Part shown: piece by piece, positions 447-13,085 of the stretch
Layout: every line of letters begins with the position of its first letter
Position numbering within the stretch: position 1 is the stretch's first letter
Assembly (NCBI GenBank): GCA_964574915.1
Contig: CAZNOW010000002.1
Coordinates: 32,328-96,327 of the forward strand
Direction of reading: 5' to 3'
Length of the DNA stretch: 64,000 bases
Origin: an uncultured Candidatus Saccharibacteria bacterium
Lineage (GTDB): Bacteria; Patescibacteriota; Saccharimonadia; Saccharimonadales; UBA4665
The notes under the pieces: model-generated
Database searches by the model: none
Told to the model about the DNA's origin: nothing
Seen by the model: the letters and a program-made list of their open reading frames with translations, nothing else
Translations under genes and position numbers: made by a program

Positions 447-643
447 ATAATAATACAAGAGCTAACGTTTGATCGGGTTCAACAATAATAACAGCTAATG
501 GTACATTTGTCTGAACAAAGTTTGAGTGGATTTCATTATTTAAACTATTAAGGCATTGTTAAGCTCGATGGTCTCAAGTCTTAACAAGTAGTTTATTAAC
601 TATTTGATAATTTGTAGCGAAGATCAAAGAGTGGCATTATTAG

Positions 644-1747
644 ATGTATATGGGACCAACAGACCAAAGTTATTCACCGAATCTGGCTTCAAATACCAAC
701 TCAAACTCGGCAACCCCTCTCCAATTTAATCAGAATCAATCTGCCCAAACGTCTCCTAAAACAGCTGTTGATTACAGCGCTTTTAGCCAGAAGCTTTTAG
801 TAAACCGAATATGGCTCATCATGGGCATCTTTGGTTTAGTAGTTATAATTATTAGTTATTTTCTGTTTTCGCACTTTTCGGCCACCGACCAAACCGCGCT
901 TAGTTTTCTGGGTGTTATCGGAGTCATTGGCGGATTAGTGCTAGCAGTCGTTTCCCTTTCCTTATACGCTTATAAATATCACAAGGCAGTTGTTGAACGT
1001 TTACAGCTGTTTTTAGCTGCTAACAACTGGATTTGGACTAATAGTAGATCATTTGATAATGTCGCTACTTCTCTTTTAGGAGTTGGTTATGGTCAACGGG
1101 TCAAACAAGAATTTTCCGGTGAATATCGTGGGCTACCCATGAGTACCGTGATTTACGAATACGTTACCGGCGAAGGTAAAAATCAACGGACTCATTATTT
1201 TTCCGATTTACATCTAACTCTACGTAAACCATATCCACTTGTGGTGCTTGATGATAAGAAAAATAGCATGCTTTTTTTCAGAGATTTACCAGAACGAATT
1301 AAGGGCGGCCAGTCCCTGCAGCTGGAGGGAGATTTCAATAGCCGATTCAACTTAACAGTTATGCCCGGTAGCCAGCAAGACGTTCTGCAACTGTTAACGC
1401 CGAATTTTATGGCCGAGTTGATGGATTGTCCTTCACATGCTGATGTTGAGCTGGAGGCCAATAAGCTCTATTTAATCAATCACCATGGCGCCAATAGTTT
1501 TAATGAACAGAACTTGCGGATGATGTTCACTATGGCCGATGTTGTGATTAAAAATATCAGTGAAGACTCGGCTGTTTGGCAAGCGTCCAGTTCGGCAGAG
1601 ACCATCCAAGCTATGGCCAACAGTGCGCTGGCAGCTCGTAATGAGACTCTCTTGCACCCGCGACGAGTTACCATTGCAAGTATAGTAATCGCCGTTGTTT
1701 ATGTTATTTATCAGATAGCCGTACACGCAATATCACATAACAGCTAG
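644..1747 (+). CDS. membrane protein with two N-terminal TM helices and one C-terminal TM helix (possibly DUF3137-like)
   Basis: 367 aa ORF. Hydrophobic segments IWLIMGIFGLVVIIISYFLF, LSFLGVIGVIGGLVLAVVSLSLY and IASIVIAVVYVIYQIAV. The family guess is from memory only. Confidence 0.5.
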   Translation: MYMGPTDQSYSPNLASNTNSNSATPLQFNQNQSAQTSPKTAVDYSAFSQKLLVNRIWLIMGIFGLVVIIISYFLFSHFSATDQTALSFLGVIGVIGGLVLAVVSLSLYAYKYHKAVVERLQLFLAANNWIWTNSRSFDNVATSLLGVGYGQRVKQEFSGEYRGLPMSTVIYEYVTGEGKNQRTHYFSDLHLTLRKPYPLVVLDDKKNSMLFFRDLPERIKGGQSLQLEGDFNSRFNLTVMPGSQQDVLQLLTPNFMAELMDCPSHADVELEANKLYLINHHGANSFNEQNLRMMFTMADVVIKNISEDSAVWQASSSAETIQAMANSALAARNETLLHPRRVTIASIVIAVVYVIYQIAVHAISHNS

Positions 1748-1839
1748 CTAATCCTACCCCCATTAGTCCATTGTCTGGTGCATCCCTAAACTCTTCAGTT
1801 TTTTAGCCAATCTTATAGTGGTTCACAATACGATACGAG

Positions 1840-2250
1840 CTAAGACCCTTTTCCATGTACTACGTCGAATTCAATCTGCATTTCTTGTATTCTCGATTTA
1901 AGCTTGGATTTGTCTACTGATTGCATGAAACCGACCGAATGTACACGATCTGATATTTCATCAACAGTCATATGCCCCAAAACGGTTACTGATGACGGTC
2001 CACCAAGATACTCTGTGCTACCTGGTGAGCAGTGATCGCTAATTAATACTCCGTCTGCATTGATCATACCGTCTTTGTCTTTTTGCCAACCTTCCACAAT
2101 CAGGCTAGAGCCTTCTGGCCTATCACTGTCGGGTGGTAGTTTGATGATATCTCCAAATTGTAAATCTTCAGGACGGATATTTAATGGGTAATCGGTTCTT
2201 TCTGCAGTGTTAGGTTGAAAGTTTGCTGGTGCAAACGAGAATTCAGACAT
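1840..2250 (-). CDS. hypothetical protein (last cassette of the array)
   Basis: 136 aa ORF with no recognisable motif. Its start-proximal leader is shared with the gene at 5984..6709. Confidence 0.45.
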   Translation of the reverse strand: MSEFSFAPANFQPNTAERTDYPLNIRPEDLQFGDIIKLPPDSDRPEGSSLIVEGWQKDKDGMINADGVLISDHCSPGSTEYLGGPSSVTVLGHMTVDEISDRVHSVGFMQSVDKSKLKSRIQEMQIEFDVVHGKGS

Positions 2251-2288
2251 AAGTAAACATTAGCATAATTTAGTGTATTTGGCAAGTA

Positions 2289-2317
2289 TGGCATACCGTA
2301 ATCAGCGACGTTGGAGC
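2289..2317 (-). repeat. cassette-flanking direct repeat, copy R1
   Basis: Plus strand TGGCATACCGTAATCAGCGACGTTGGAGC. Matches the family consensus TGGTACACCGTAGTCAGCGATGTTCGGACC. Lies 50 nt 3' of the stop of 2368..3699. Confidence 0.7.
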
Positions 2318-2367
2318 TTGTCAATTCCTTGCGAACTAGCCTTTAAGTTTCTTATAGAGTGATCTAA

Positions 2368-3699
2368 TTATTGAGTAATCTGTACCTTACTATTTAGCAC
2401 CGCAGTCAATGTATAGGAGCTAGGATTTACGAGGGCATTCTTGAATATGTAATTAGTGTATGAGTATTGAGTTGGATCTGACCCAAATGGAGGGATGGTA
2501 ACTGCTCCTAATTCGGTATTACCAGCTAGCGTGACAGTGCCAGTGAATGTTACAACAGCTGGAGTGCCTTGCCCCGGTAAATTACCGACACAATCCATTG
2601 GTCCACTGATACAGCTAGTTATTGCTCCCGTTATGTCCCCAGTTGTATTGGTTAAATCATATGCTAAACCATTACCGCTCATAGTTATATTATTCGTAAT
2701 AGTCATTGCCAGAGTTTGATTATTACCTTCTATACTACCCATAGAATCGATATCCAGACTACCGCCGTTTTGTATATCAATTTCACTATTACCCAGTCCA
2801 TCAGGAGTACCAAGAGTGGCACCATTCTCAACACCGAGGATGTTATTGGCCAGGTCAACTATCGCACCAGAGCCAATTGTTACTTGGCTATCCAAATTAG
2901 GGCTAGTAATTGCAAATTGAACGCAAGAATTATCACTAATATAAATCGGGCCGCTACCGCTTAACGAGTTGTTGAATTGAATTGTGCTGAGAGGTAGTGG
3001 TGTCGGGTTATTACTGCTATCCACACAGCCCGTCTTCATGTTAACAATTGAGGATTTAGGGATTGTAACGACGCCGCTAATAACAAGCGTACCAGCTTGA
3101 GTATTAGTGATGATTATGTTGCCGTCCAAATCTAAGTTATTATCGATTTCAGGGCTGGCTCCCTCGTTAAGGATTTGGTTTTTTATGGTAAGACCATTAC
3201 CCTTAACATCTATAAATTTACTTGAGCCATTAAATATTAGCTCGTTAATCACTAACCCGTTAATATTGTTATTAATTGATGTTATTACGTTCCCGTCACT
3301 ATCTTTGGTGGTTTTAATATTACTTAAATCTATATCCAAATTTTGTCCGTTTTGGGGTACGCCTAAACTCCAGTTGCTCGCACTATCCCAATTAGTATTA
3401 TTACCCTTGCCGACCCATGTGTTGGTGGTCGGCGTGGTGGTTGAAGTAGGAGTATTTGTAGTTTTATGATAATTCTTATAAACATACCAACCGCCGACAG
3501 CAATAAGAACAACCACCAATATAATCAATACCGATATTAAAGTTTTATGAGTATTATTTTTTTGTTGCCTTGGCTGTTCTGAAGATATTACAGATTGAGA
3601 TGGGGTTGGATCGATCAGTTGCGCAGGCGGTGTGTTTATGGGTAACGGTGTTGACGTAGGTGTAGGTAAAGGGTCAGTATTGTTTGTATTAGGTTCCAT
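2368..3699 (-). CDS. membrane-anchored surface protein with a beta-helix-type repeat region (autotransporter-associated beta-strand-repeat-like)
   Basis: 443 aa. P/T-rich N-terminus, one TM helix (LISVLIILVVVLIAVGGWYVY) and a T-rich linker. Then WVGKGNNTNWDSASNWSLGVPQNGQNLDI followed by G/N/T/I-rich repeats. Confidence 0.55.
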   Translation of the reverse strand: MEPNTNNTDPLPTPTSTPLPINTPPAQLIDPTPSQSVISSEQPRQQKNNTHKTLISVLIILVVVLIAVGGWYVYKNYHKTTNTPTSTTTPTTNTWVGKGNNTNWDSASNWSLGVPQNGQNLDIDLSNIKTTKDSDGNVITSINNNINGLVINELIFNGSSKFIDVKGNGLTIKNQILNEGASPEIDNNLDLDGNIIITNTQAGTLVISGVVTIPKSSIVNMKTGCVDSSNNPTPLPLSTIQFNNSLSGSGPIYISDNSCVQFAITSPNLDSQVTIGSGAIVDLANNILGVENGATLGTPDGLGNSEIDIQNGGSLDIDSMGSIEGNNQTLAMTITNNITMSGNGLAYDLTNTTGDITGAITSCISGPMDCVGNLPGQGTPAVVTFTGTVTLAGNTELGAVTIPPFGSDPTQYSYTNYIFKNALVNPSSYTLTAVLNSKVQITQ

Positions 3700-3771
3700 A
3701 TCATGTTCAGCATAAACAATATTAATATTTATGTAAATGAAATGATATCAAATACAAATAATTTTATTCTT

Positions 3772-3796
3772 TGGTGCACCAAGATTTGGAGGATTC
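3772..3796 (-). repeat. cassette-flanking direct repeat, degenerate copy R2
   Basis: Plus strand TGGTGCACCAAGATTTGGAGGATTC. Shares the TGGT.CACC head. Lies 34 nt 3' of the stop of 3831..4328. Confidence 0.4.
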
Positions 3797-3830
3797 ATAT
3801 CTGTCGGATTAATATGCAGTAAAGGCGATA

Positions 3831-4328
3831 CTAGAACTTGCCTTCTAACTGGATAGCTTCGACTTCATTCATGGATTTAAAGGTTTTATCACCATTAAAA
3901 TGAATGATAAATCCCAATGGATAATTTGCGGTATCTGATAATACTTTGGGTATCCATAATCTATCAGCTGGCCACATGTCATTAAATGGTAGTTGGTTTG
4001 GCTGAAAGAGCTGAGGACGCATTTCTTCTGTCTCAGCCGGCTCACCCGTAAAATCACATGAATATGCGCGACTTACAACACCTAGTGCACCATCAAAATA
4101 GAAATGTAGATTAGCTAAATGTAGCAGGTTACTAATATGTAAACCGACCTCTTCAAGCGTTTCGCGTCTTGCTGAATCTTCATAAGATTCGTTATTGAGT
4201 AATTTCCCGCCAAAACCATTCCACCAACCTTCGCCAAACCCCCTCTTCTTCATGCCCAGCAAAATACCTTTTGTATTTTGGGGAAAAACAATAGTCGTTC
4301 TTTGATAACCAACCTCGACATTAGCCAT
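3831..4328 (-). CDS. NUDIX hydrolase (MutT/MTH1-like)
   Basis: Nudix box GKLLNNESYEDSARRETLEEVGL fits GX5EX7REUXEEXGU. Paralog of 11836..12300. Confidence 0.8.
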   Translation of the reverse strand: MANVEVGYQRTTIVFPQNTKGILLGMKKRGFGEGWWNGFGGKLLNNESYEDSARRETLEEVGLHISNLLHLANLHFYFDGALGVVSRAYSCDFTGEPAETEEMRPQLFQPNQLPFNDMWPADRLWIPKVLSDTANYPLGFIIHFNGDKTFKSMNEVEAIQLEGKF

Positions 4329-4372
4329 AGGATAATATTAGTACTGAAGTTTATAACATAAAAGCGTAAGCA

Positions 4373-4405
4373 TGGCGGCGCCGTAGTCAGCAAAGATGAA
4401 AACTC
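4373..4405 (-). repeat. cassette-flanking direct repeat, copy R3 (subfamily ending AAACTC)
   Basis: Plus strand TGGCGGCGCCGTAGTCAGCAAAGATGAAAACTC. Lies 15 nt 3' of the stop of 4421..4810. Confidence 0.65.
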
Positions 4406-4420
4406 TATGATTGATGCGGT

Positions 4421-4810
4421 TTATTTAATCTCTGGGTAACGGTCACTATTTTTACGATAATACTCAACCCACTTGTTATCTTTATCCACCTCAACATAGT
4501 CAACATATAGTCCTTCTTTAAAAGCACCATTCTTGTCGAGTTTAATCTTCTGTGCCTTAGCTATATCCATATCTGTTAAACCATATTTTTGTTTAAGGTC
4601 ATCGAGTGCTTGCTGTACATCTGCAATTTCTCCTGCTACCTCTTCAGGCTTTGCCTGTGTAATTTCTTTCGTTTCTTCAATAATTTTGAGAATTAGCGCT
4701 TGCTTGTGCCTTTTGTCGTCTAGGTGGTGGTATTTAGGTTTTGCTCCTGAAGCTATTTGATTCTCAACGATTTTATCTCTTACCAATTTGGCGAATTTAA
4801 ACTTAGGCAT
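4421..4810 (-). CDS. MazG-like nucleoside triphosphate pyrophosphohydrolase
   Basis: 129 aa. N-terminal KLVRDKI, then an EE..E...E..D helical pattern (IIEETKEITQAKPEEVAGEIADVQQAL). Confidence 0.55.
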   Translation of the reverse strand: MPKFKFAKLVRDKIVENQIASGAKPKYHHLDDKRHKQALILKIIEETKEITQAKPEEVAGEIADVQQALDDLKQKYGLTDMDIAKAQKIKLDKNGAFKEGLYVDYVEVDKDNKWVEYYRKNSDRYPEIK

Positions 4811-4893
4811 ACATGTACTATAACAATGTCGTTAAAGAAATTATTATTACTAAGAACTATATGAATTAGCAGTGAACAATTTACAGTAGCTTA

Positions 4894-5733
4894 CTATTGG
4901 TATTGTCCGATTGTAGGCAGTTGGTTGTTATTGTTTTCTTGATATGGGGGTTGATTTGGTTGGGGAGTAATTGGGTTGGCAGCTTGTGGATATGTTGGAC
5001 TAGGTATTGGAGGAGTGGGGCTATACGCAGTAGGTTGTGTGGTTTGAGGTGCAGTAGATGGATTAGTTGGATAAGGTGAGCTACTGATTGGTTGCGATGG
5101 AGCATAGGGTATTGTGGGCTGTTGCGGCATAAGTGGTTGAGCTGGCATAGTCATACTAGGTTGGACAGATTGTTGGAAAGGTTGGGTTTGCTGAGGCCAA
5201 GGTTCGGCCGTAGGAGCTGCAGAAGCCATCGGCCCCATATTGTAGATAGTCGATCCTGGTGCAATACCGGCATCAAGCATGTCATTGAAAGTGTCCTGAA
5301 CAATAGCTACACCAATGAGGTGTAGTAACCACAATAGTAAGAAAGTTATGCCGGTTCCGGATTTACCATTCGTGTATACATTAACTGCTTTAGAGAACTT
5401 AAAGAACCAATAAAAGGAAATTAACACGGATGCAATTAAGGAAACGACGGCAACAAGTAATCCAATTATCCCAGTACCGTTTATACTTGTACTGCTGGTA
5501 GCTATAGAGCCGCTAGCTGTAAATGTTGTCTGTGTTGATTGGTTGGTTACTGCAATTACAATAGTTGCAACTATGAAAATAATGATAGGAGAAAACAACA
5601 ACCAAATAGTTGGAGTATGAATTTTAGTCTTTTTGTTTAACTCAGTTTTAGTTTTAACTAACCAATAAATGTCATAGATTCCAAATGTAATAATACTTAG
5701 ACAAAACACTGCTAAGGGATTTCGGCGTTTCAT
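4894..5733 (-). CDS. DUF4234-like membrane protein with a P/Q-rich C-terminal tail
   Basis: N-terminal RNPLAVFCLSIITFGIYDIYWLVKT motif and several TM helices. The C-terminal ~110 aa are rich in P, Q and T. Confidence 0.55.
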   Translation of the reverse strand: MKRRNPLAVFCLSIITFGIYDIYWLVKTKTELNKKTKIHTPTIWLLFSPIIIFIVATIVIAVTNQSTQTTFTASGSIATSSTSINGTGIIGLLVAVVSLIASVLISFYWFFKFSKAVNVYTNGKSGTGITFLLLWLLHLIGVAIVQDTFNDMLDAGIAPGSTIYNMGPMASAAPTAEPWPQQTQPFQQSVQPSMTMPAQPLMPQQPTIPYAPSQPISSSPYPTNPSTAPQTTQPTAYSPTPPIPSPTYPQAANPITPQPNQPPYQENNNNQLPTIGQYQ

Positions 5734-5854
5734 AATGTTTGTTTAATACTCTTTTACGATTAATTTTTATTATTCTACCATAAGCAGTTAGGTTTTTAAA
5801 GTGTTACATGTCTAACACCATCCTCTAACCGGGCCTAGAAACAAAACAAACGAA

Positions 5855-5883
5855 AGTACATCACCTTATACGATGTTCGGACA
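5855..5883 (-). repeat. cassette-flanking direct repeat, copy R4
   Basis: Plus strand AGTACATCACCTTATACGATGTTCGGACA. Preceded by the CCTCTAACCGGGCCTAGAA module (5822..5840). Lies ~100 nt 3' of the stop of 5984..6709. Confidence 0.55.
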
Positions 5884-5983
5884 GTTTTATGTGACGAATT
5901 TTGCTAATAATACACTTGCCAATAGTCGGCTAAATTAACAAATTGTACAAAGAATTCAGGCTCTATTGATTATTGCCCGATTA

Positions 5984-6709
5984 TTAGGCTACTGCACTTT
6001 CGGGTATAACTAAATTTCCAATTTGTTGAGCTACATCTGTACGTTGCTCTTCTGGCCGTAGGTAATTCCATCTTGCACTATTTTGTGCATCGTCAAGTAA
6101 ACCAAGATATCCTTGTGCTACATCCAGTATCATTACATTGCCGCCATGCGAAGTATAACGAACCCACGCGTGACCATCTAATTCACTATTGGGCTGCCAG
6201 ACGGCATTTCTGTCAACGCTGATATCTCCTCTAATATAACCTTCGTCTTTAAACGATTGGAGTAATACTGCACATGCTAATGCTTGGTGACGACACACAC
6301 CAGCATGATTTTCCATGAAAACACCCAGATCAATTTTACTTCCATCAGGAAACTGTGGCAGTCCTTTTGCTTTACCTATATCATTCAAAATGGAATCAAC
6401 TTTTTCTTGTGAATAAGGCATTTCAGTTGAAACTGTATCGAACACAGCCTGTAATACTTTTGACCGCTGTATTTTGCCGTTTTCGATAGCGCGTTGTTTA
6501 GCTTTTTCGAAATATAAACGGTATTGCTCTGGATTCTTTGACGGGTCTACAACAATTGCCTCACCTTTATAGGTGCCATAATATACTCCACCACGGACAT
6601 CCATATCTCTACCGATTAGTTGTCGACCTTGGTAGATAGAACCAAATTCTTTACGTGCCGTGGTAGTGTACCCCCAGTCGGTAGGTAAATCTTTTTCTTT
6701 TTCAGGCAT
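5984..6709 (-). CDS. transglutaminase-like (papain-fold Cys-His-Asp) protein
   Basis: 241 aa. GVCRHQALACAVLL (Cys), DGHAWVRY (His) and ILDVAQ (Asp) occur in the order and spacing typical of transglutaminase-like cysteine peptidases. Confidence 0.5.
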   Translation of the reverse strand: MPEKEKDLPTDWGYTTTARKEFGSIYQGRQLIGRDMDVRGGVYYGTYKGEAIVVDPSKNPEQYRLYFEKAKQRAIENGKIQRSKVLQAVFDTVSTEMPYSQEKVDSILNDIGKAKGLPQFPDGSKIDLGVFMENHAGVCRHQALACAVLLQSFKDEGYIRGDISVDRNAVWQPNSELDGHAWVRYTSHGGNVMILDVAQGYLGLLDDAQNSARWNYLRPEEQRTDVAQQIGNLVIPESAVA

Positions 6710-6747
6710 AGATAAACATTAGCATATTCTTGTTTATAAGTCAATCT

Positions 6748-6795
6748 TGGTGTACCCGTAGTAATAGGAGAATGCTGGAAATGTTGCAAAGGTCC
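6748..6795 (-). repeat. cassette-flanking direct repeat, degenerate copy R5a
   Basis: Plus strand TGGTGTACCCGTAGTAATAGGAGAATGCTGGAAATGTTGCAAAGGTCC. No ORF lies between it and copy R5b. Confidence 0.5.
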
Positions 6796-6881
6796 TGAGT
6801 TTTATACGGTTATGTATGTGCCTATATTTTTGGACTTCAACTTCTAATCATGCCTAACATAAATAACATATAAAATAATCG

Positions 6882-6911
6882 TGGTACACCGTAGTCAGCG
6901 ATGTTGGGACC
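6882..6911 (-). repeat. cassette-flanking direct repeat, copy R5b (extended unit about 6840..6911)
   Basis: Plus strand TGGTACACCGTAGTCAGCGATGTTGGGACC. Its last base overlaps the stop codon of 6911..7138. Upstream module CTTCTAATCATGCCTAAC. Confidence 0.85.
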
Positions 6912-7138
6912 TATTTACTAGCCGAATGTTCGTCAGCAATTTCTGAAATTTGACCACGCTCTTCGTTAGTAATTTTGCGTGCTACACCTACACCATCTAA
7001 GGCTAAACCACCTATTTCGACTGGTGCCCATCCAAAATCATAAGCTACGCCAGCTGCCCTAAGTGGGAGCCAATGCTCTTTACCTGCAATTAACATTTTA
7101 TAAAGAGGGAATACATTATCTGGGGTTGTTTCTGCCAT
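6911..7138 (-). CDS. hypothetical protein
   Basis: 75 aa ORF bounded on both sides by repeat copies. No motif recognised. Confidence 0.4.
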   Translation of the reverse strand: MAETTPDNVFPLYKMLIAGKEHWLPLRAAGVAYDFGWAPVEIGGLALDGVGVARKITNEERGQISEIADEHSASK

Positions 7139-7229
7139 AACATAAATTATCGATTATTTATTGTTATAGAGCAAGCAACAGCACTTTAGGTTCTAACGTC
7201 TAATCAGGGTTAACAGAAATAACAGATGA

Positions 7230-7259
7230 TGGTACACCGTAGTCAGCGATGTCGGAACC
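7230..7259 (-). repeat. cassette-flanking direct repeat, copy R6 (extended unit about 7189..7259)
   Basis: Plus strand TGGTACACCGTAGTCAGCGATGTCGGAACC, 28/30 identical to R5b. Upstream module GGTTCTAAC. Confidence 0.85.
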
Positions 7260-7280
7260 GCTTTATATGTGAATATTGCC

Positions 7281-7877
7281 TTAGGATGTTGCTCGTGAAC
7301 TTCTTAATGGTTTGGCTCTTCTCCCTAGTAGAATTGCCGCCACGATGGCTATGTTAAACAAAAATACGTACATTGGGGCGGCTAATAGAGATGGATCAAG
7401 CTTTCCGACCGCTAGCATATTGAATAACGTAGAAGCAATCCCCACATACCACATGAATATTGTTTCTGTTTGCGGATGCTTATAAGACTTGACGACTATT
7501 AATAAAGCTCCGATGCCGTCGGCAATTATGGTACAGATCAGGGCCGTTAGCGGTGAGTTATCTATCTTCCAAAGCGCAATCGCTAGTATAGCTACACCAA
7601 AACTGGCCACATTGACAAGGTTAACATCTCCGTAGCCTCCGCCCTTCCGCATTGATAGACTAAACAAAATAACATTGTTAATCACGGTCCAGCCGTAAAA
7701 AAATAGTGACGCCCGAGCACCTAGTTGTAGCTGGCTAGTAAAGAATAGAACGCTGAGTATTAAGAAAATTAACCAGGATATACGATGTGGTTTTGTCTTA
7801 CGGCGGTAGGTGTTGTAGATATAAGGTATTGCTCCGATAATGCATAAACAACCAGAGATCAAACCGAAAACGTACAT
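7281..7877 (-). CDS. polytopic membrane protein
   Basis: 198 aa, about 6 hydrophobic helices, basic C-terminus. Confidence 0.55.
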   Translation of the reverse strand: MYVFGLISGCLCIIGAIPYIYNTYRRKTKPHRISWLIFLILSVLFFTSQLQLGARASLFFYGWTVINNVILFSLSMRKGGGYGDVNLVNVASFGVAILAIALWKIDNSPLTALICTIIADGIGALLIVVKSYKHPQTETIFMWYVGIASTLFNMLAVGKLDPSLLAAPMYVFLFNIAIVAAILLGRRAKPLRSSRATS

Positions 7878-7960
7878 GCTTAAATATTAACTCACGCTAT
7901 TAAAAAGCAATAGCGTCTTGGTTCTAACTTCAATTAAGGCTAAAGAAAAATAGCAGATGA

Positions 7961-7990
7961 TGGTACACCGTAATAAAGGATGTTCAAACT
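7961..7990 (-). repeat. cassette-flanking direct repeat, copy R7 (extended unit about 7920..7990)
   Basis: Plus strand TGGTACACCGTAATAAAGGATGTTCAAACT. Shares CAGATGATGGTACACCGTA and GGTTCTAAC with R6. Confidence 0.8.
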
Positions 7991-8032
7991 TCGTTTGTTT
8001 ATGATTATCAGATGAGACTTACTAGTAATTCC

Positions 8033-8350
8033 TTAGTACGATAAGCAACCCGGCAAAGGGTTTATTACTCGTCCGTTAGATACATAAGGCCCCATATTAA
8101 TATCATCGACAACTAAACTCTCGTTCTCTTTGCCCCTAACTATTACACAGCTAGCAGTACAACCCAATCGCTGGCATCTCATCATTAATCTATCAATCAG
8201 CTTATCCCTTGTAAGCCCCTTACCATAGATGGATTCATGGAGAGCTTGAACAACATCATCATCCAAATTGCATTCAAAGTCGCAGTCAACCTCAAGTACA
8301 ACATCATTCAGGCAAGCCGGGCTACTTAAATCAGATTCTCGTCTCTTCAT
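8033..8350 (-). CDS. Cys-rich hypothetical protein, translationally coupled to the upstream VOC gene
   Basis: I favour the ATG at 8348..8350, which overlaps the TGA of 8347..8715 in an ATGA arrangement. The ORF track starts it at 8371. Confidence 0.45.
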   Translation of the reverse strand: MKRRESDLSSPACLNDVVLEVDCDFECNLDDDVVQALHESIYGKGLTRDKLIDRLMMRCQRLGCTASCVIVRGKENESLVVDDINMGPYVSNGRVINPLPGCLSY

Positions 8351-8715
8351 TGAATCTTTTGCCAAAAGCATAGCTTATAGCCATCAGGATCTTTTAGGAT
8401 AAACTCTCGATTACCCCAATCCCAATCCTTTGGTTCTGTAGCTGGTTTAAGCCCTGAACTGACTAGCTCTTTGTACTTTAAGTCAACATTATCAACACTG
8501 ATGTAAAGATACATTCCTCGACCCTTATCTGTAGACATTGAATCTTTTGAAAATATCTCTTCGTCACGCATATTAACTAATGTAATTTCAAAACCAGATA
8601 ATGACACTACAGAGTGGGTATCATCGGACTCTTTAACTTCAAAGCTAAGCTTCTTGTAAAATTTCTCTGAAAGCTTATTCTCCTGAACCCACAGCAGTAA
8701 ACTTGTTATTTTCAT
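8347..8715 (-). CDS. VOC family protein (glyoxalase/bleomycin-resistance fold)
   Basis: 122 aa with the typical size and pattern: FYKKLSFEV, then W..REFILKDPDGYKLCFWQ at the C-terminus. Confidence 0.7.
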   Translation of the reverse strand: MKITSLLLWVQENKLSEKFYKKLSFEVKESDDTHSVVSLSGFEITLVNMRDEEIFSKDSMSTDKGRGMYLYISVDNVDLKYKELVSSGLKPATEPKDWDWGNREFILKDPDGYKLCFWQKIQ

Positions 8716-8782
8716 ACAGCTATTGTCTAACAGAAGTAAATGGATTCAAAGTTATATTTACAACAATGTGACGTAGGTAAGA

Positions 8783-8812
8783 TAGCACACCTGCCCGAAC
8801 AATGTTCGGACA
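8783..8812 (-). repeat. cassette-flanking direct repeat, copy R8
   Basis: Plus strand TAGCACACCTGCCCGAACAATGTTCGGACA. Contains the palindrome CCGAAC-AAT-GTTCGG. A TCTAAC module lies at 8726..8731. Confidence 0.6.
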
Positions 8813-8846
8813 ATTCTTTTGTTGACTGATTTAACCTATATAAGGC

Positions 8847-9563
8847 TTAAAAGGGTGGTTGCTCTTCCCCGCAAGACTCATCGAATACTAACCAGCTGGC
8901 ATTCGCTAGGTATTCAGGGAAGCCCTCAGGGTCAATTTTCGGATATTGTGTTCTTGCCTCATCTATATAATAATTTCTCCACCACTTGTAGCCTTGCGGA
9001 CTTTTTTCTTTCAACAACTCAATCGCCTCGCGGCCTAGCACTGAAACACCGGGTTCCTGTTGACCGCGGACTGGTAAAGTAACACCAACCCATTCTTTAC
9101 GGATTTCCTCGGGGGCAAACCCGGGTGGTGTGCTGGTGATGGCAAATTGCCAGCGGGCTGGAGCAATATCATCAAGACGTGCTCGCAGGCGGTCAAAGTC
9201 TGGGGTTAGCCAGTCGCCGCTGAGTTGTAATAATCTACTAATATCATCTGGGCTTGGTGGTGAATATGAATCTCGCATGTTGGGCTGACGTCGTAATATG
9301 GGCAGATTCTTGCGGGTGGCAACTATACCCTGTCTGGCGGCATTAAGCAGCACTCTGCCTAGAAATTCTTCCATGAGCTCGTCATGTTCCTGAAGTCCCC
9401 ATTCACCGCTCATTAGGTGATGTAATATATGATAGGCACCAACCCTATGAGTGCCTTGTGTTTTATAGCTGACACCTGTATCTGGCATTATCTCAGGGGT
9501 TAATATGTTAGCTATAGATTCGTCCTTCATTTGTCCAGCACTGTGCCTACTCATCAATTTCAC
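8847..9563 (-). CDS. hypothetical protein
   Basis: 238 aa ORF with no motif recognised. By eye it looks richer in G+C than neighbouring cassettes. Confidence 0.5.
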   Translation of the reverse strand: MKLMSRHSAGQMKDESIANILTPEIMPDTGVSYKTQGTHRVGAYHILHHLMSGEWGLQEHDELMEEFLGRVLLNAARQGIVATRKNLPILRRQPNMRDSYSPPSPDDISRLLQLSGDWLTPDFDRLRARLDDIAPARWQFAITSTPPGFAPEEIRKEWVGVTLPVRGQQEPGVSVLGREAIELLKEKSPQGYKWWRNYYIDEARTQYPKIDPEGFPEYLANASWLVFDESCGEEQPPF

Positions 9564-9673
9564 TCCCCGATATTGTTAGTCATAATTTTATATGTAAGAT
9601 AAATCAATGCAAGCAGCAGCATTTTGTCCGAGCTTCTAACCAGGCCTAACTAAATTAATAGATACAAAAATCG

Positions 9674-9703
9674 TGGTACACCACGCTGAACGATGTTCGG
9701 ACC
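9674..9703 (-). repeat. cassette-flanking direct repeat, copy R9 (extended unit about 9632..9703)
   Basis: Plus strand TGGTACACCACGCTGAACGATGTTCGGACC. Upstream module GCTTCTAACCAGGCCTAAC. Confidence 0.8.
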
Positions 9704-9891
9704 ACCTATCTTGCGAGGATTGTTTGACTTAACCTAAACTCTAAACGATTTCAGGATTTGAGTTAAGTGACAGAGTGGTTGGTGGTGTTGTGGAGGATTG
9801 AGAGCCCTAGCGGCGGGGAGCAATGACACACTTGTGTCTATGCTATGGGCAAACCCACGACCCCGCCACTTTTTGGGCAACCCTCAAGGGA

Positions 9892-10281
9892 TCAGAAGTA
9901 AGCAACCCACCCTAGGTCACTGTAGCTGAAGATGTTCTCCATTGTTGTTTCCAGTCGATCGTCGTCTGACCAAGGGTTTAACTCTTCTCCGAAGAGGACT
10001 ACCGCCAATCTGCCGATGGGGAGGACGTGCTCTTCAATCCACCGTCTGATCAGCTCTTCAAGCGCATGATCTGAAAGGAAGCCTTTATTGGATTCAACTG
10101 GTGTCAGTTTGGCCGCTGATGCCTCCTTGTGGAATACCCCACCTTCTTCAAGGGAGAAAACTTCGGATGGGATGCGTACGATCTTGGGCCTCACACCTTT
10201 CCGCAACAGTTTCAGACGAGTTGTCTGATACTGCTTGCTGCTGACGCTGCCGATGCACAGAATAACGTTACGCTGTGGCAC
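9892..10281 (-). CDS. hypothetical protein (GTG start)
   Basis: 129 aa. GTG at 10279..10281 is preceded by GGAGG about 10 nt upstream (minus sense GGAGGCAGCCTACCGTG). G+C-rich relative to its surroundings. Confidence 0.5.
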   Translation of the reverse strand: MPQRNVILCIGSVSSKQYQTTRLKLLRKGVRPKIVRIPSEVFSLEEGGVFHKEASAAKLTPVESNKGFLSDHALEELIRRWIEEHVLPIGRLAVVLFGEELNPWSDDDRLETTMENIFSYSDLGWVAYF

Positions 10282-10464
10282 GGTAGGCTGCCTCCTAATA
10301 ACTGCAACTGGAATCTCCAGTTTAGCTAGCAGCCTGCAAAGTATCTTAAGTTACAGACTATTAGCCAAACTAGAGTATCCACTCTGTCAATGTTCTTCGG
10401 AGATAGAGATATCCACCTCAACGAATTATAACTACTTTAGCATAATAACTATCAACAGTCAAAT

Positions 10465-10494
10465 TGGTACACCATAATAGAGTAGGTTCGAACT
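10465..10494 (-). repeat. cassette-flanking direct repeat, copy R10
   Basis: Plus strand TGGTACACCATAATAGAGTAGGTTCGAACT. This copy is closest to the tRNA-Arg 3' end (TGGTAC.CC head and TTCGAAC T-loop block). Confidence 0.75.
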
Positions 10495-10527
10495 TGTAAT
10501 AATTTATTTTCAATCAAAAATGATGAC

Positions 10528-11115
10528 TTAATTAGATAAATATTTCTTTTTCCAATTTTCAAGTTCTTCAATTGTTTTAACATTCCCTTGGAGGACAGCT
10601 TTATAAATCATGACAGAGTAAAATCCATTAGGATAGCGCCCCTGTTCGATGAGGTTTGCTTTTAAAAATATTATCGTATCTTTTTGAGATTCTGTGAGCT
10701 TACTATCCCAACCAACATAAAAGTTTTCTGCATCTAGTTGGTCTTCGGGTTTCATTACATGTGCATCAATTTGCCAAAGTACATTTTGCCATATTGGTTT
10801 AAACCCAATATAAAGACTTTTAGGGACATTGACATCCTTAGGCCAAATATACTGATTATGTATAGATACTTTACCAACCCCATCCATTAACATAATTTTG
10901 CTTGCAATATTCACCAAAGATTCAAGTGTCGGATTTGAATTGTAAATCAGAAAATCAATGTCGGGCTTAGCCATTAATCCATATCGAAAACTTCCGACTC
11001 TATGTATTTCACCCAGAGGTTTTAATAATTCTTCAACGTGATAATGGTCTAATATCTTTTGGGCAGTAGCCTGCAAATTTGCTTGATTTCTTTTAGCTTC
11101 CTCAAGTGTAATCAT
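10528..11115 (-). CDS. Pol-beta-superfamily nucleotidyltransferase-domain protein
   Basis: 195 aa. GSFRYGLMAKPDIDFLIY fits the G[SG]-x9-13-DxD nucleotidyltransferase signature. Confidence 0.55.
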   Translation of the reverse strand: MITLEEAKRNQANLQATAQKILDHYHVEELLKPLGEIHRVGSFRYGLMAKPDIDFLIYNSNPTLESLVNIASKIMLMDGVGKVSIHNQYIWPKDVNVPKSLYIGFKPIWQNVLWQIDAHVMKPEDQLDAENFYVGWDSKLTESQKDTIIFLKANLIEQGRYPNGFYSVMIYKAVLQGNVKTIEELENWKKKYLSN

Positions 11116-11179
11116 GGATTAATCATAGCAAAAACCAACAAATAAAATCTCAGAAGGAGCCTCTAATAACGCTTAAGCT

Positions 11180-11211
11180 TGGTACAGCGTAGTCCGAGAA
11201 GTCAGAAACTC
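11180..11211 (-). repeat. cassette-flanking direct repeat, copy R11 (subfamily ending AAACTC)
   Basis: Plus strand TGGTACAGCGTAGTCCGAGAAGTCAGAAACTC, preceded by CCTCTAATAAC. Confidence 0.75.
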
Positions 11212-11283
11212 TATTATGGCTGATTGTTATGTCGAACTATACGGTTATTAAAGAGATAGATTGTGTCTAGTTACCTACCTATA

Positions 11284-11511
11284 CTAGAGGTGGCTAATTA
11301 GTTCTTCGACTGTAATTCCTAAAGGATTGAGTATACCTTTCTTAAGGGTGCCTGGTTTAATTACTTTATGGTTTGGAATAATAGCAGTTCTACCTTTATT
11401 ATCTTTCATCTTGATATGACTACCTTTTTGGCTGACTTTAGTAAAACCCATTTTCTGTAGGGTTTTAATTAATTCATTGGCTGATAGTACTGGTTGCCTA
11501 GGCATGAGCAA
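11284..11511 (-). CDS. hicA: type II toxin HicA (mRNA interferase)
   Basis: 75 aa. LQKMGFTKVSQKGSHIKM...IPNH...LKKGIL is the HicA/YcfA signature. Overlaps hicB by 14 nt. Confidence 0.85.
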   Translation of the reverse strand: MLMPRQPVLSANELIKTLQKMGFTKVSQKGSHIKMKDNKGRTAIIPNHKVIKPGTLKKGILNPLGITVEELISHL

Positions 11512-11743
11512 GTTTAACGGGTACTACGAATTGACGTTTGTAGTCATAGTCGTTAGTAGCTTCTATTGCTGGGCTATCTTCTAAATAGAGTTCAATGGCT
11601 TCTTTAATGTTCTCAAGTGCTTCTTCAATAGTTTCTCCTTGTGAAGCACAGCCTGGCAGGTCAGGAACCCACACAGAATAACCACCGTCCTTTTCTTCCT
11701 GAAAGACTGCTTGATATTCAACTGATGAACGACTAATTTTCAT
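11498..11743 (-). CDS. hicB: HicB-family antitoxin (UPF0150 N-terminal domain only)
   Basis: 81 aa. YQAVFQEEKDGGYSVWVPDLPGCASQGETIEEALENIKEAIELYLE is the HicB-like fold motif. Confidence 0.8.
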   Translation of the reverse strand: MKISRSSVEYQAVFQEEKDGGYSVWVPDLPGCASQGETIEEALENIKEAIELYLEDSPAIEATNDYDYKRQFVVPVKLAHA

Positions 11744-11752
11744 ACTTTATAT

Positions 11753-11784
11753 TATAACACCGTAGTCTGAGAAGTAAGAGACTC
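11753..11784 (-). repeat. cassette-flanking direct repeat, copy R12 (subfamily ending GACTC)
   Basis: Plus strand TATAACACCGTAGTCTGAGAAGTAAGAGACTC. Very similar to R11. Lies 10 nt upstream of the hicB start and between hicB and the divergent NUDIX gene. Confidence 0.7.
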
Positions 11785-11835
11785 CATAATTAATGATTTA
11801 AGTGTCTTTCTTTCTTCTGCCTTATAATTGTATTC

Positions 11836-12300
11836 ATGAAACAGGCAACTCTTCTTTTCCTGTTAGATGACAGTCGAATACTCTTAGCTATGAAAAAACG
11901 TGGGTTTGGAGTAGGAAGATGGAATGGCGTTGGTGGGAAGCCAGATAAAGAAGAAGCTATCGATAAAGCTGCTGTTCGAGAATGCCAAGAAGAGATTAAT
12001 GTTACACCTAAAGATATCATAGAGGTAGCAACCCTCAATTTTTATTTTCCTGATAATAAGAAAGAATGGGACCAACAGGTGATTGTATTTACCTGTAAAA
12101 CTTGGAGTGGAGAACCTACAGAGACCGAAGAGATGTCTCCCCAATGGTTTCAGATAAATGAAATCCCTTACGATAAAATGTGGTCAGACGACAAGTATTG
12201 GCTACCGAAAGTTATTGAAGGTAAATATGTGAAAGCTGACTTTCATTTTGACGACAATGATAATTTACTGAAATATAACATAAAGCCCCAACAGGATTAG
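11836..12300 (+). CDS. NUDIX hydrolase (MutT/MTH1-like), second paralog
   Basis: MKKRGFGVGRWNGVGGKPDKEEAIDKAAVRECQEEINV closely parallels [38 protein letters not shown] in 3831..4328. Confidence 0.8.
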   Translation: MKQATLLFLLDDSRILLAMKKRGFGVGRWNGVGGKPDKEEAIDKAAVRECQEEINVTPKDIIEVATLNFYFPDNKKEWDQQVIVFTCKTWSGEPTETEEMSPQWFQINEIPYDKMWSDDKYWLPKVIEGKYVKADFHFDDNDNLLKYNIKPQQD

Positions 12301-12392
12301 AACTAATCTCAATCTGTTAACAAAAAATAGAGATGAAAGATAAGAAATATCAGAACCGTCTGAAAAGTGTATTAGAGACTAAATTCCTATGT

Positions 12393-12470
12393 GGTACGCC
12401 CGATAGGATTCGAACCTACGACCTCATCCTCCGCAAGGATGCGCTCTAATCCAGCTGAGCTACGGGCGCG
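12393..12470 (-). tRNA. tRNA-Arg (anticodon GCG), CCA encoded
   Basis: Minus strand GCGCCCGTAGCTCAGCTGGATTAGAGCGCATCCTTGCGGAGGATGAGGTCGTAGGTTCGAATCCTATCGGGCGTACCA. Acceptor stem of 7 bp with G1-U72. D arm GCTC/GAGC. Anticodon stem CATCC/GGATG with loop TTGCGGA. T arm GTAGG-TTCGAAT-CCTAT. Confidence 0.9.
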
Positions 12471-12582: not shown

Positions 12583-12673
<91 letters not shown>

Positions 12674-12689
12674 ATATAAGGTTTAGCTT

Positions 12690-13085
12690 ATGCCTGATTC
12701 AATATTTACAAAAATTATCAAAGGTGAAATTCCCTGTTATAAGATATACGAAGACGAAAGCACCCTTGCCTTTTTAGATATCCACCCAATCCTGCCAGGG
12801 CACACTTTAGTAGTCCCTAAAAAACAGGTTGAATTTGTTTGGGATTTGAGTAACAAAGATTACCTCGCGCTTATGGCAACAGCCAAACTTGTAGCCCAGC
12901 GCTTAAGACATGTATTCCCTGAAAAAACTCGGGTGGCGATGATAATTGAGGGGTTAGATGTAGCCCATGCACATTTAAAGATATTCCCCTTTAATACTGA
13001 TAGTGAATTTCGTAATACACCCGATTTAACTGCTGAGCCAGATCATAAAATGCTAATGGATATTGCCAGTAAGTTGGCATTCTGA
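12690..13085 (+). CDS. HIT family protein
   Basis: N-terminal IFTKIIKGEIPCYKIYEDE and a histidine-triad region in which the usual HxHxHxx reads AHAHLKIF, so the third His is Lys. Confidence 0.8.
   Translation: MPDSIFTKIIKGEIPCYKIYEDESTLAFLDIHPILPGHTLVVPKKQVEFVWDLSNKDYLALMATAKLVAQRLRHVFPEKTRVAMIIEGLDVAHAHLKIFPFNTDSEFRNTPDLTAEPDHKMLMDIASKLAF

Follow-up and report, generated by a model that had tools for sequence, protein, structure and literature searches.

A candidate integron-like, integrase-less cassette array at the 3' end of a tRNA-Arg gene in Saccharimonadales

Among systems that accumulate single-gene cassettes, integrons are, to our knowledge, the only one that is well understood, and reports of them from beyond a few phyla are scarce. 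Integrative elements that target tRNA genes were reportedly described by Williams in 2002. Clusters of attC sites lacking integron-integrases (CALINs), which carry no intI, are common (Cury et al. 2016, PMC4889954), and additive islands seeded at tRNA genes and marked by partial-tRNA repeats are found in Prochlorococcus (Hackl et al., bioRxiv 10.1101/2020.12.28.424599). Our literature search found no description of integrons, tRNA-Arg islands or arrays of the kind reported below in Saccharibacteria, Patescibacteria or the candidate phyla radiation (CPR), and the text on IntegronFinder 2.0 contains no occurrence of Patescibacteria or CPR. Here we analyze a 64-kb stretch of contig CAZNOW010000002.1 from an uncultured Candidatus Saccharibacteria bacterium (hereafter, the window), in which a tandem array of short units extends from the 3' end of a tRNA-Arg(GCG) gene, each unit followed by a repeat that resembles the end of that tRNA. 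With a probability of roughly 0.55, we interpret these repeats as DNA recombination sites of an integron-like, integrase-less cassette array for which the 3' end of tRNA-Arg serves as the primary dock.

The conserved part of the repeat, module A, is a 30-nt element for which repeat finding, a position weight matrix (PWM) and an nhmmer profile agree on 11 clear copies between positions 499 and 11782 (plus-strand starts as given for module A in Table 1); two or three more decayed copies lie in the remaining intergenic gaps. All 11 clear copies share one strand and orientation and lie on the 3' side of tRNA-Arg(GCG), as had been claimed in an earlier reading of this DNA made from its letters alone (the sequence-only reading), and the copy starts and endings quoted there are all in place: the copies at 6882, 7230, 7961, 9674 and 10465 start with TGGTACACC and the one at 11180 with TGGTACAGC, and the endings are GTTCGAAC (10465), GTTCGGAC (5854, 8783 and 9674), GTTGGGAC (6882) and GTTCAAAC (7961). 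In tRNA sense, the consensus is GGTTCTAAC-TTCGT-nnAnTA-YG-STGTACCA. The motif TGGTACRSC occurs nine times in the window against 1.3 expected, a count that none of 100 shuffles reached. The PWM and nhmmer detected no further copy in the remaining 50 kb of the window, nor in the adjoining 10 kb on the left, which were read from a contig of the same genome (L001, JGI sample 3300017988); over this scanned stretch of chromosome, module A is not dispersed, unlike repetitive extragenic palindromic sequences and bacterial interspersed mosaic elements (REP/BIME) or uptake sequences. About half of the window copies are followed by a second, less conserved element of 40–60 nt, module B (TGTTATTTnTGTTAGGCcTGATTAGAaGTTAGAACC), and the window sequence after the repeat CCA is GTTAG-rich.

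The units that these repeats delimit are co-oriented and mostly consist of a single minus-strand open reading frame (ORF) with a repeat after it, all on one strand and less than 4 kb apart, with module A spacings of 348–3565 nt in the window and a median copy-to-copy spacing of 723 nt across all loci considered below. Over the same set of loci, 14 of 40 copies of module A have a stop codon no more than 12 nt away, compared with 49 of 720 random positions, and a co-oriented ORF of at least 50 codons ends no more than 80 nt upstream of it in 28 of 40. According to Pfam, the cargo of the window array includes a HicB/HicA pair, two NUDIX genes, a glyoxalase, a DUF4234 protein, and membrane and unknown proteins; RelE/ParE pairs are also among the cargo of the arrays examined, and HicAB, RelE/ParE, NUDIX and glyoxalase genes give it the look of integron cargo. 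A scan of the array for promoters and terminators gave counts at the level of shuffled sequence.

The tRNA-Arg(GCG) gene at 12392..12469 is the proximal anchor of the array. From 12392, the plus strand reads TGGTACGCCCGATAGGATTCGAACCTAC, the reverse complement of the T-loop, the 3' strand of the T-stem, the 3' strand of the acceptor stem, A73 and CCA; the sequence-only reading had given this sequence correctly while placing its start one base late. The claim that the repeats share two blocks with this 3' end was borne out by scoring against a repeat profile built from 40–42 copies, in which the T-loop 9-mer of the tRNA reached 9.8 bits (P = 2e-4 per random 9-mer) and its last 9 nt 13.1 bits (P = 1.7e-5). 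When one 5-nt gap was allowed, the tRNA-Arg genes adjacent to arrays scored 17–23 bits, the 3' end of the one in the window reaching 18.4 bits with the gapped PWM, a value equalled by 0 of 2000 shuffles. Ser, His, Lys, Cys and Leu tRNAs, together with a tRNA-Arg ending in GCGCCA, stayed at or below 7.8 bits and matched through the generic T-loop block only. Chance, which the sequence-only reading had left open as one source of the likeness, is at odds with these scores: the two-block resemblance to tRNA-Arg is not a chance match, and its specific part is the terminal GGYGTACCA. The accompanying caveat holds, in that the repeats carry 5 extra nt between the two blocks and are more alike among themselves than to tRNA-Arg; the match is confined to the last 6–9 nt and the T-loop-like 9-mer, and the 12 nt between them are unrelated. 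A G1-U72 wobble pair tops the acceptor stem in all six array-adjacent tRNA-Arg genes, and it is because of this pair that the end of the tRNA reads GTACCA.

We also noticed that module A, in tRNA sense, contains TAACTTCGTATA (consensus positions 6–17; L027 844–873 and 1691–1720; L032 720–749), which equals 12 of 13 nt of the loxP inverted-repeat arm, ATAACTTCGTATA. No second inverted arm is present 8 bp from this stretch, and the likeness may be a coincidence or may hint at a Cre-like tyrosine recombinase.

Pattern scans beyond the window recovered further such loci, all of them in Saccharimonadales genomes or in metagenome contigs with several copies each. The pattern CTAAC + TGGTACACC + GTYSRRAC matched two records among 185,579 species genomes, both metagenome-assembled genomes of Candidatus Saccharimonadales (L026, L027), and a looser pattern matched 18 metagenome contigs, about half of them with 2–4 copies each. 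Single-copy metagenome matches (L030, L033–L035, L037 and L042–L045) were set aside as chance, and scanning viral contigs with the module A pattern returned 19 single matches, which is chance level, and no arrays. The end of the array is visible at six loci, and in every one of them a tRNA-Arg gene, oriented alike, adjoins it with its 3' end. The anticodons differ (GCG in the window, L027, L029 and L038; TCG in L028; CCG in L031), and the six tRNAs end in GGCGTACCA, GGTGTACCA or GGTGCACCA.

Two relatives show how the site varies. In L038, which is close to the window organism (tRNA 97.7% and HIT protein 80% identical), the cassettes at the same site differ, and the unit at 9615..9703 of the window is 86% identical to a unit of this relative with unrelated flanks on both sides. 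L050 is syntenic and carries a tRNA-Arg with the same 3' end and no repeats, so that its site appears empty; an array-free tRNA-Arg in a relative was among the checks that the sequence-only reading had proposed. Because the L038 cassettes differ and L050 is without repeats, the array is a variable, lineage-specific addition at a conserved site.

The 42 copies from 12 loci align without gaps. T3, A8, C9, T11, A17, G22, T24, G25 and A27–A30 of module A are conserved in at least 90% of them, and positions 15–16, 18 and 21 vary freely. This alignment bears on a simpler explanation, in which the repeats would be passive scars, that is, decayed att junctions left at the tRNA gene by a series of larger, integrase-bearing, tycheposon-like elements, with no cassette system and no present function. 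The documented tRNA-seeded islands of Prochlorococcus and the decay of several copies here fit such an origin. However, the central 12 nt and the 5-nt longer spacing are derived features shared across 12 loci of different genomes, so the repeats are probably not partial tRNAs; one repeat stands per gene, at about 0.7-kb spacing, right after the stop codon; and the arrays examined (the window, L031, L047 and shorter contigs) yielded no fragment of an integrase. We therefore consider passive scarring unlikely.

The sequence that follows CCA differs from genome to genome, with a TTATGCTTATG-like stretch in L031, L036, L039 and L041 and a terminator-like hairpin directly after CCA in L047, L032, L026 (L026_1655) and L040 (L040_1153). 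The L028 tRNA-Arg and the repeat L040_1153 agree at about 90% of positions over the 55 nt past CCA (local score 71, z = 25); the identity begins at TACCA and stops after the T-run of the terminator, and upstream of it one sequence is the tRNA and the other is module A. Likewise, 15 of the 17 nt directly after CCA are identical between the tRNA flank and the L027_844 flank in L027. Position 70 of the tRNA is a C, paired with G3, in the window, L028, L031 and L038, and the corresponding base in the repeats of these loci is a T; recurrent exchange would thus have to take place 3' of position 70, within GTACCA, because otherwise the tRNA would gain a G3-U70 pair. Together, these sequence comparisons place the junction in the shared GTACCA core.

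Under the cassette explanation that we favor, each cassette would open at its 5' end with module B, which varies (promoter-like, GTTAG-rich or a terminator hairpin), continue with what is usually a single ORF, and close at its 3' end with the conserved 30-nt module A, which would copy two pieces of the tRNA, its T-loop 9-mer and its final 9 nt (GGYGTACCA). In a free form, circular or other, the cassette would carry a joined A/B site. Acting in trans, a recombinase encoded elsewhere would bring about exchange, inside GTACCA, between this site and either the tRNA-Arg 3' end or a module A already in place. Each insertion would leave the tRNA intact, set a new module B directly after CCA and push older cassettes outward, such that repeated insertion would generate a tandem array, and the T-loop-like arm and terminal block of module A would reproduce the contacts of the enzyme on the tRNA gene. 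That cassettes move, which enzyme acts on them and where exactly it cuts are what we infer here. Shared overlap regions of 6–7 bp are usual for tyrosine recombinases; because the shared core is of this size, a tyrosine recombinase is the most plausible candidate for the predicted enzyme. More tentatively, we suggest that the loci could represent an undescribed, IntI-independent cassette-capture system of Saccharimonadales (CPR/Patescibacteria), with tRNA-Arg 3' ends as the primary attachment site, a 30-nt mimic on every cassette, and exchange in GTACCA by a recombinase encoded elsewhere.

Several other site architectures were considered and rejected. A dif/Xer-like or simple two-arm core site does not fit by eye, since there is no 11-6-11 arrangement and the right arm is not conserved; single-strand transposition of the IS200/IS605 type does not fit a module A that lacks a conserved hairpin. 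Reassortment of modules A and B within the window looked like recombination at first sight and is weak, since B type 1 equals B type 2 plus an 8-nt insertion.

The overall organization of the array invites comparison with a canonical integron remnant, that is, a CALIN with hairpin attC sites and IntI recombination at the R' GTT, beside which the tRNA would lie only by accident. Single co-oriented ORFs with a 75–95-nt unit after each, a cargo of toxin-antitoxin and other small genes, and the frequency of CALINs lacking intI are all in keeping with this, as are the unit ends, which resemble R'' (TTCTAAC) and R' (GTTAGAAC or GTTAGGC). An inverted A arm also lies 30–70 nt past CCA in about a quarter of the units, including some in the window, L029 and L040; at a threshold of at least 9 bits it was found in 5 of 36 units versus 1 of 36 controls, the inverted copy corresponding to the first 12 nt of module A (GGTTCTAACTTC). 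Yet DNA folding of 39 units shows no gain in stability over shuffled sequence (mean z -0.75), and those of the window mostly have z of at least 0, only terminator-hairpin units standing out. R''/R' complementarity is not specific to the copy (5.97 matches versus 5.84 with permuted partners, p = 0.145), and on reading the sequences, changes in the variable part of module A are uncompensated in module B. Homology breaks at CCA rather than at R', no intI was found in the 10 kb on the left or in the ORFs scanned on the right, and the adjoining of tRNA-Arg by six of six arrays is left unexplained, all of which makes an integron remnant very improbable. The units with an inverted A arm are bounded by inverted repeats, though the family overall does not fold.

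Folding tests bear equally on the second of two readings proposed from the sequence, in which the repeats are tRNA-like elements for 3' processing or stability on each cassette mRNA. In a broader form of this reading, module A would be an RNA element, a mimic of the tRNA 3' end or a protein-binding motif in the 3' untranslated region that serves processing, stability or termination. In agreement with such a role, module A lies 0–50 nt past stop codons and ends in ACCA; an intrinsic-terminator-like hairpin follows at once in L047, L032, L026_1655 and L040_1153, as it does after the L028 tRNA-Arg; and in the subfamily of the window itself, a 6-bp stem with a 7-nt loop precedes ACCA. Across the family, however, the helix 8–13/21–26 is paired in 70.2% of cells versus 68.9% in column shuffles, 51 of 500 of which were as high, and the pairs 10–24, 11–23 and 13–21 are broken in 40–69% of the 42 copies. 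There is no excess of compensatory changes and hence no covariation, mutual information between columns shows no pairing pattern, the T-arm is absent, Rfam matches only the two tRNAs of the window, and the whole units, which the sequence-only reading had suggested folding in search of tRNA-like helices, do no better than shuffled sequence. An RNA element would moreover explain neither why arrays start at tRNA-Arg in one orientation nor why flanks are interchangeable at CCA. The RNA reading is thus without structural support and, in our judgment, quite unlikely, a sequence-specific RNA-binding role being conceivable.

The first of those two readings, att sites with serial accretion of islands at the tRNA, fared better: the tRNA-Arg ends at all six loci, a core made of the last 6–9 nt and flank homology from CCA onward agree with it. 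It requires amendment in that the accreted units are single-gene, integrase-less cassettes, that the repeats form a conserved family of their own and are probably not decayed partial tRNAs, and that no recombinase was found.

Several observations weigh against the cassette explanation even in this amended form. Genomes differ in the sequence right of the core, an unusual feature if this were a simple two-arm core site, and the distance from the T-loop-like block to the core is 5 bp greater in the repeats than in the tRNA. The evidence on the junction comes mainly from two locus pairs. No cassette recurred at high identity in a second context; for the 195-aa and 198-aa proteins of the window, homologues are at most 70% identical. 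No insertion/deletion polymorphism was seen, and contigs carrying the proteins of the window are 99.99–100% identical to it. Finally, no recombinase was detected in the 10 kb left of the array, among precomputed Pfam hits for 10 kb on either side, among the ORFs scanned right of the tRNAs (most of those of at least 120 aa at 12.7–63 kb), in L031, or in the Pfam hits precomputed for L046 and L047. There was no PF00589 or other recombinase match among the 40 window ORFs scanned, and none of the cassettes in the window, in L031 or in L047 held an integrase; comparing all loci with one another by blastn and tblastx recovered shared tRNAs and repeats and no shared cassettes; and the repeat is absent from L046, L048, L049 and L051, the loci of the homologues of the 195-aa and 198-aa proteins.

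The coordinates of the array, its repeats and the two tRNA genes are collected in Table 1. To the right of the tRNAs lie core genes, encoding HIT, LeuRS, TsaD, a Mur ligase, GroES/EL, ArgRS, DnaG, sigma-70, Fpg, holA, TruB, EF-P and YchF; GC content is 38–43% on the array side versus 44–49% for these core genes. Just past the distal end of the array, 7–10 kb left of the window start (L001 426–3041), there is a five-gene cluster resembling type IV secretion system (T4SS) pilin and TrbC genes.

Table 1. Positions of the array, repeat units and tRNA genes in the window
Feature	Position	Strand	Evidence and remarks
Cassette array, ~14 short units	458..12391	minus	ORFs, Pfam, composition, repeat positions
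Most distal unit: weak A 499-528 + B 458-498	458..528	minus	Leave-one-out score of A 4.5 bits
Module A (core GGTATGCCA)	2289..2318	minus	Repeat finding, PWM, nhmmer
Possible decayed copy (AATCCGAC…GGTGCACCA), longer internal spacing	3772..3810	minus	By eye only, weak
Decayed copy (…GCTGACTACGGCGCCGCCA), between NUDIX ORF and 129-aa ORF	4373..4405	minus	By eye and repeat family D5; under profile thresholds
Unit: A 5854-5883 (core GATGTACTT) + B-like stretch	5806..5883	minus	PWM, nhmmer
Full unit: A 6882-6911 + B	6836..6911	minus	A overlaps stop codon of 75-aa ORF
Full unit: A 7230-7259 + B 7189-7229	7189..7259	minus	Inverted A arm 7189-7200
Full unit: A 7961-7990 + B 7920-7960	7920..7990	minus	Repeat finding, PWM, nhmmer; B ends with inverted A 5' arm (plus-strand GGTTCTAACTTC, 7920-7933)
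Module A, variant core (GGTGTGCTA)	8783..8812	minus	PWM 29.5 bits; nhmmer E = 0.36
Full unit: A 9674-9703 + B 9615-9673	9615..9703	minus	PWM; comparison with L038
Module A (AGTTCGAAC…GGTGTACCA)	10465..10494	minus	33 nt past stop codon of 195-aa ORF
Module A (…GCTGTACCA), downstream of HicB/HicA	11180..11209	minus	PWM 29.4 bits; nhmmer E = 4e-4
Module A, core mutated (GGTGTTATA)	11753..11782	minus	PWM 22.6 bits; nhmmer E = 0.11; first repeat after tRNA-proximal NUDIX unit
Decayed unit, 34 nt past tRNA CCA	12295..12357	minus	Local alignment p = 0.014; A-arm-like GGTTCTGAT, GTACCA core absent, then B-like TCATCTCTATTTTTTGTTAAC (17/21 identical to B of unit 7230)
tRNA-Arg(GCG) gene, intact, CCA encoded	12392..12469	minus	ARAGORN; Rfam tRNA 65.1 bits
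tRNA-Arg(GCG) 3' 25 nt GGTTCGAATCCTATCGGGCGTACCA	12392..12416	minus	Holds both blocks mimicked by repeats
Terminal block of tRNA-Arg, GGCGTACCA	12392-12400	minus	
T-loop block of tRNA-Arg	12408-12416	minus	
tRNA-Ser(CGA) gene	12583-12673	plus	ARAGORN, Rfam

Additional observations concern individual loci. The window array holds two NUDIX paralogues, at 3831–4328 (minus) and 11836–12300 (plus), which are 43–55% identical in tblastx segments; the second, the tRNA-proximal unit, is inverted relative to the array, and because the core of its downstream repeat is mutated to GTTATA, this unit may be fixed in place. In L050, two tandem units of about 113 nt lie upstream of the array-free tRNA-Arg(GCG) (12684–12970), each opening with the tRNA 5' end (GCACCCGTAGC) followed by unrelated GC-rich sequence, and these may be pseudo-tRNAs or att-like duplications on the 5' side. 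Three B modules in L032 (92–1200) are long hairpins that start at CCA itself (CCAAGAAAA…TTTTCTTGG), with a stem base identical in all three and apical parts that differ yet still pair. In the relative L047 (1–18669), the array has a diverged form of the repeat, with GCACCA at its end and a terminator hairpin after it. Many genes of this array concern metal resistance (CsoR-like repressors, a P-type ATPase, cation efflux, ArsP), and it contains a 300-nt internal duplication (7268–7567 and 11528–11827).

If the cassette explanation is true, these loci would represent a second, mechanistically different cassette system, anchored at a tRNA gene and using sites that are sequence-specific rather than folded, and promoter-poor arrays with one site per gene would have evolved more than once. 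Such a system would provide an integron-like reservoir of accessory genes, a flexible gene pool for ultra-small episymbiotic bacteria with genomes of about 1 Mb, and would suggest that a new site-specific recombinase exists whose target is compact and well defined.

Among known systems, sedentary chromosomal integrons and CALINs (PMC4889954) share with these arrays tandem, co-oriented, integrase-free single-gene units with a site-like repeat starting at the stop codon, a cargo of toxin-antitoxin pairs, small enzymes and unknown proteins in cassettes of about 0.35–1.8 kb, and repeat ends resembling RYYYAAC and GTTRRRY. The arrays described here differ in that no IntI, and no attI beside an integrase gene, was found in the sequence scanned, that sequence rather than a hairpin is conserved, that the junction falls in a GTACCA core in mid-unit instead of at the R' GTT, and that the anchor is a tRNA-Arg gene whose 3' end is mimicked. 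Elements that target tRNA genes, including tycheposons, likewise grow on the 3' side of a specific tRNA, follow its orientation, are bounded by direct repeats that share its 3' end and leave it intact. The known ones, however, measure several kb, encode their own integrase and carry true partial tRNAs with about 40 identical nt, whereas the units here are about 0.7 kb long, hold one gene and no integrase, and end in a dedicated site that is probably not a partial tRNA.

Plant mitochondrial t-elements and mascRNA-type 3' ends also lie downstream of ORFs and end in ACCA, but they fold into helices resembling an acceptor stem and T-arm, in contrast to the repeats here, which have no conserved helix. 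Recombinase-less tandem modules at the 3' end of a conserved gene are also formed by the staphylococcal cassette chromosome (SCC) and pseudo-SCC elements at rlmH, by cis-mobilizable elements (CIMEs) at fda and by the pdif modules of Acinetobacter plasmids, which are bounded by copies of the attachment core and mobilized in trans, as we propose for the present cassettes. Those systems differ in target gene, site sequence and enzyme families, and the modules at tRNA-Arg are much smaller, with one per gene.

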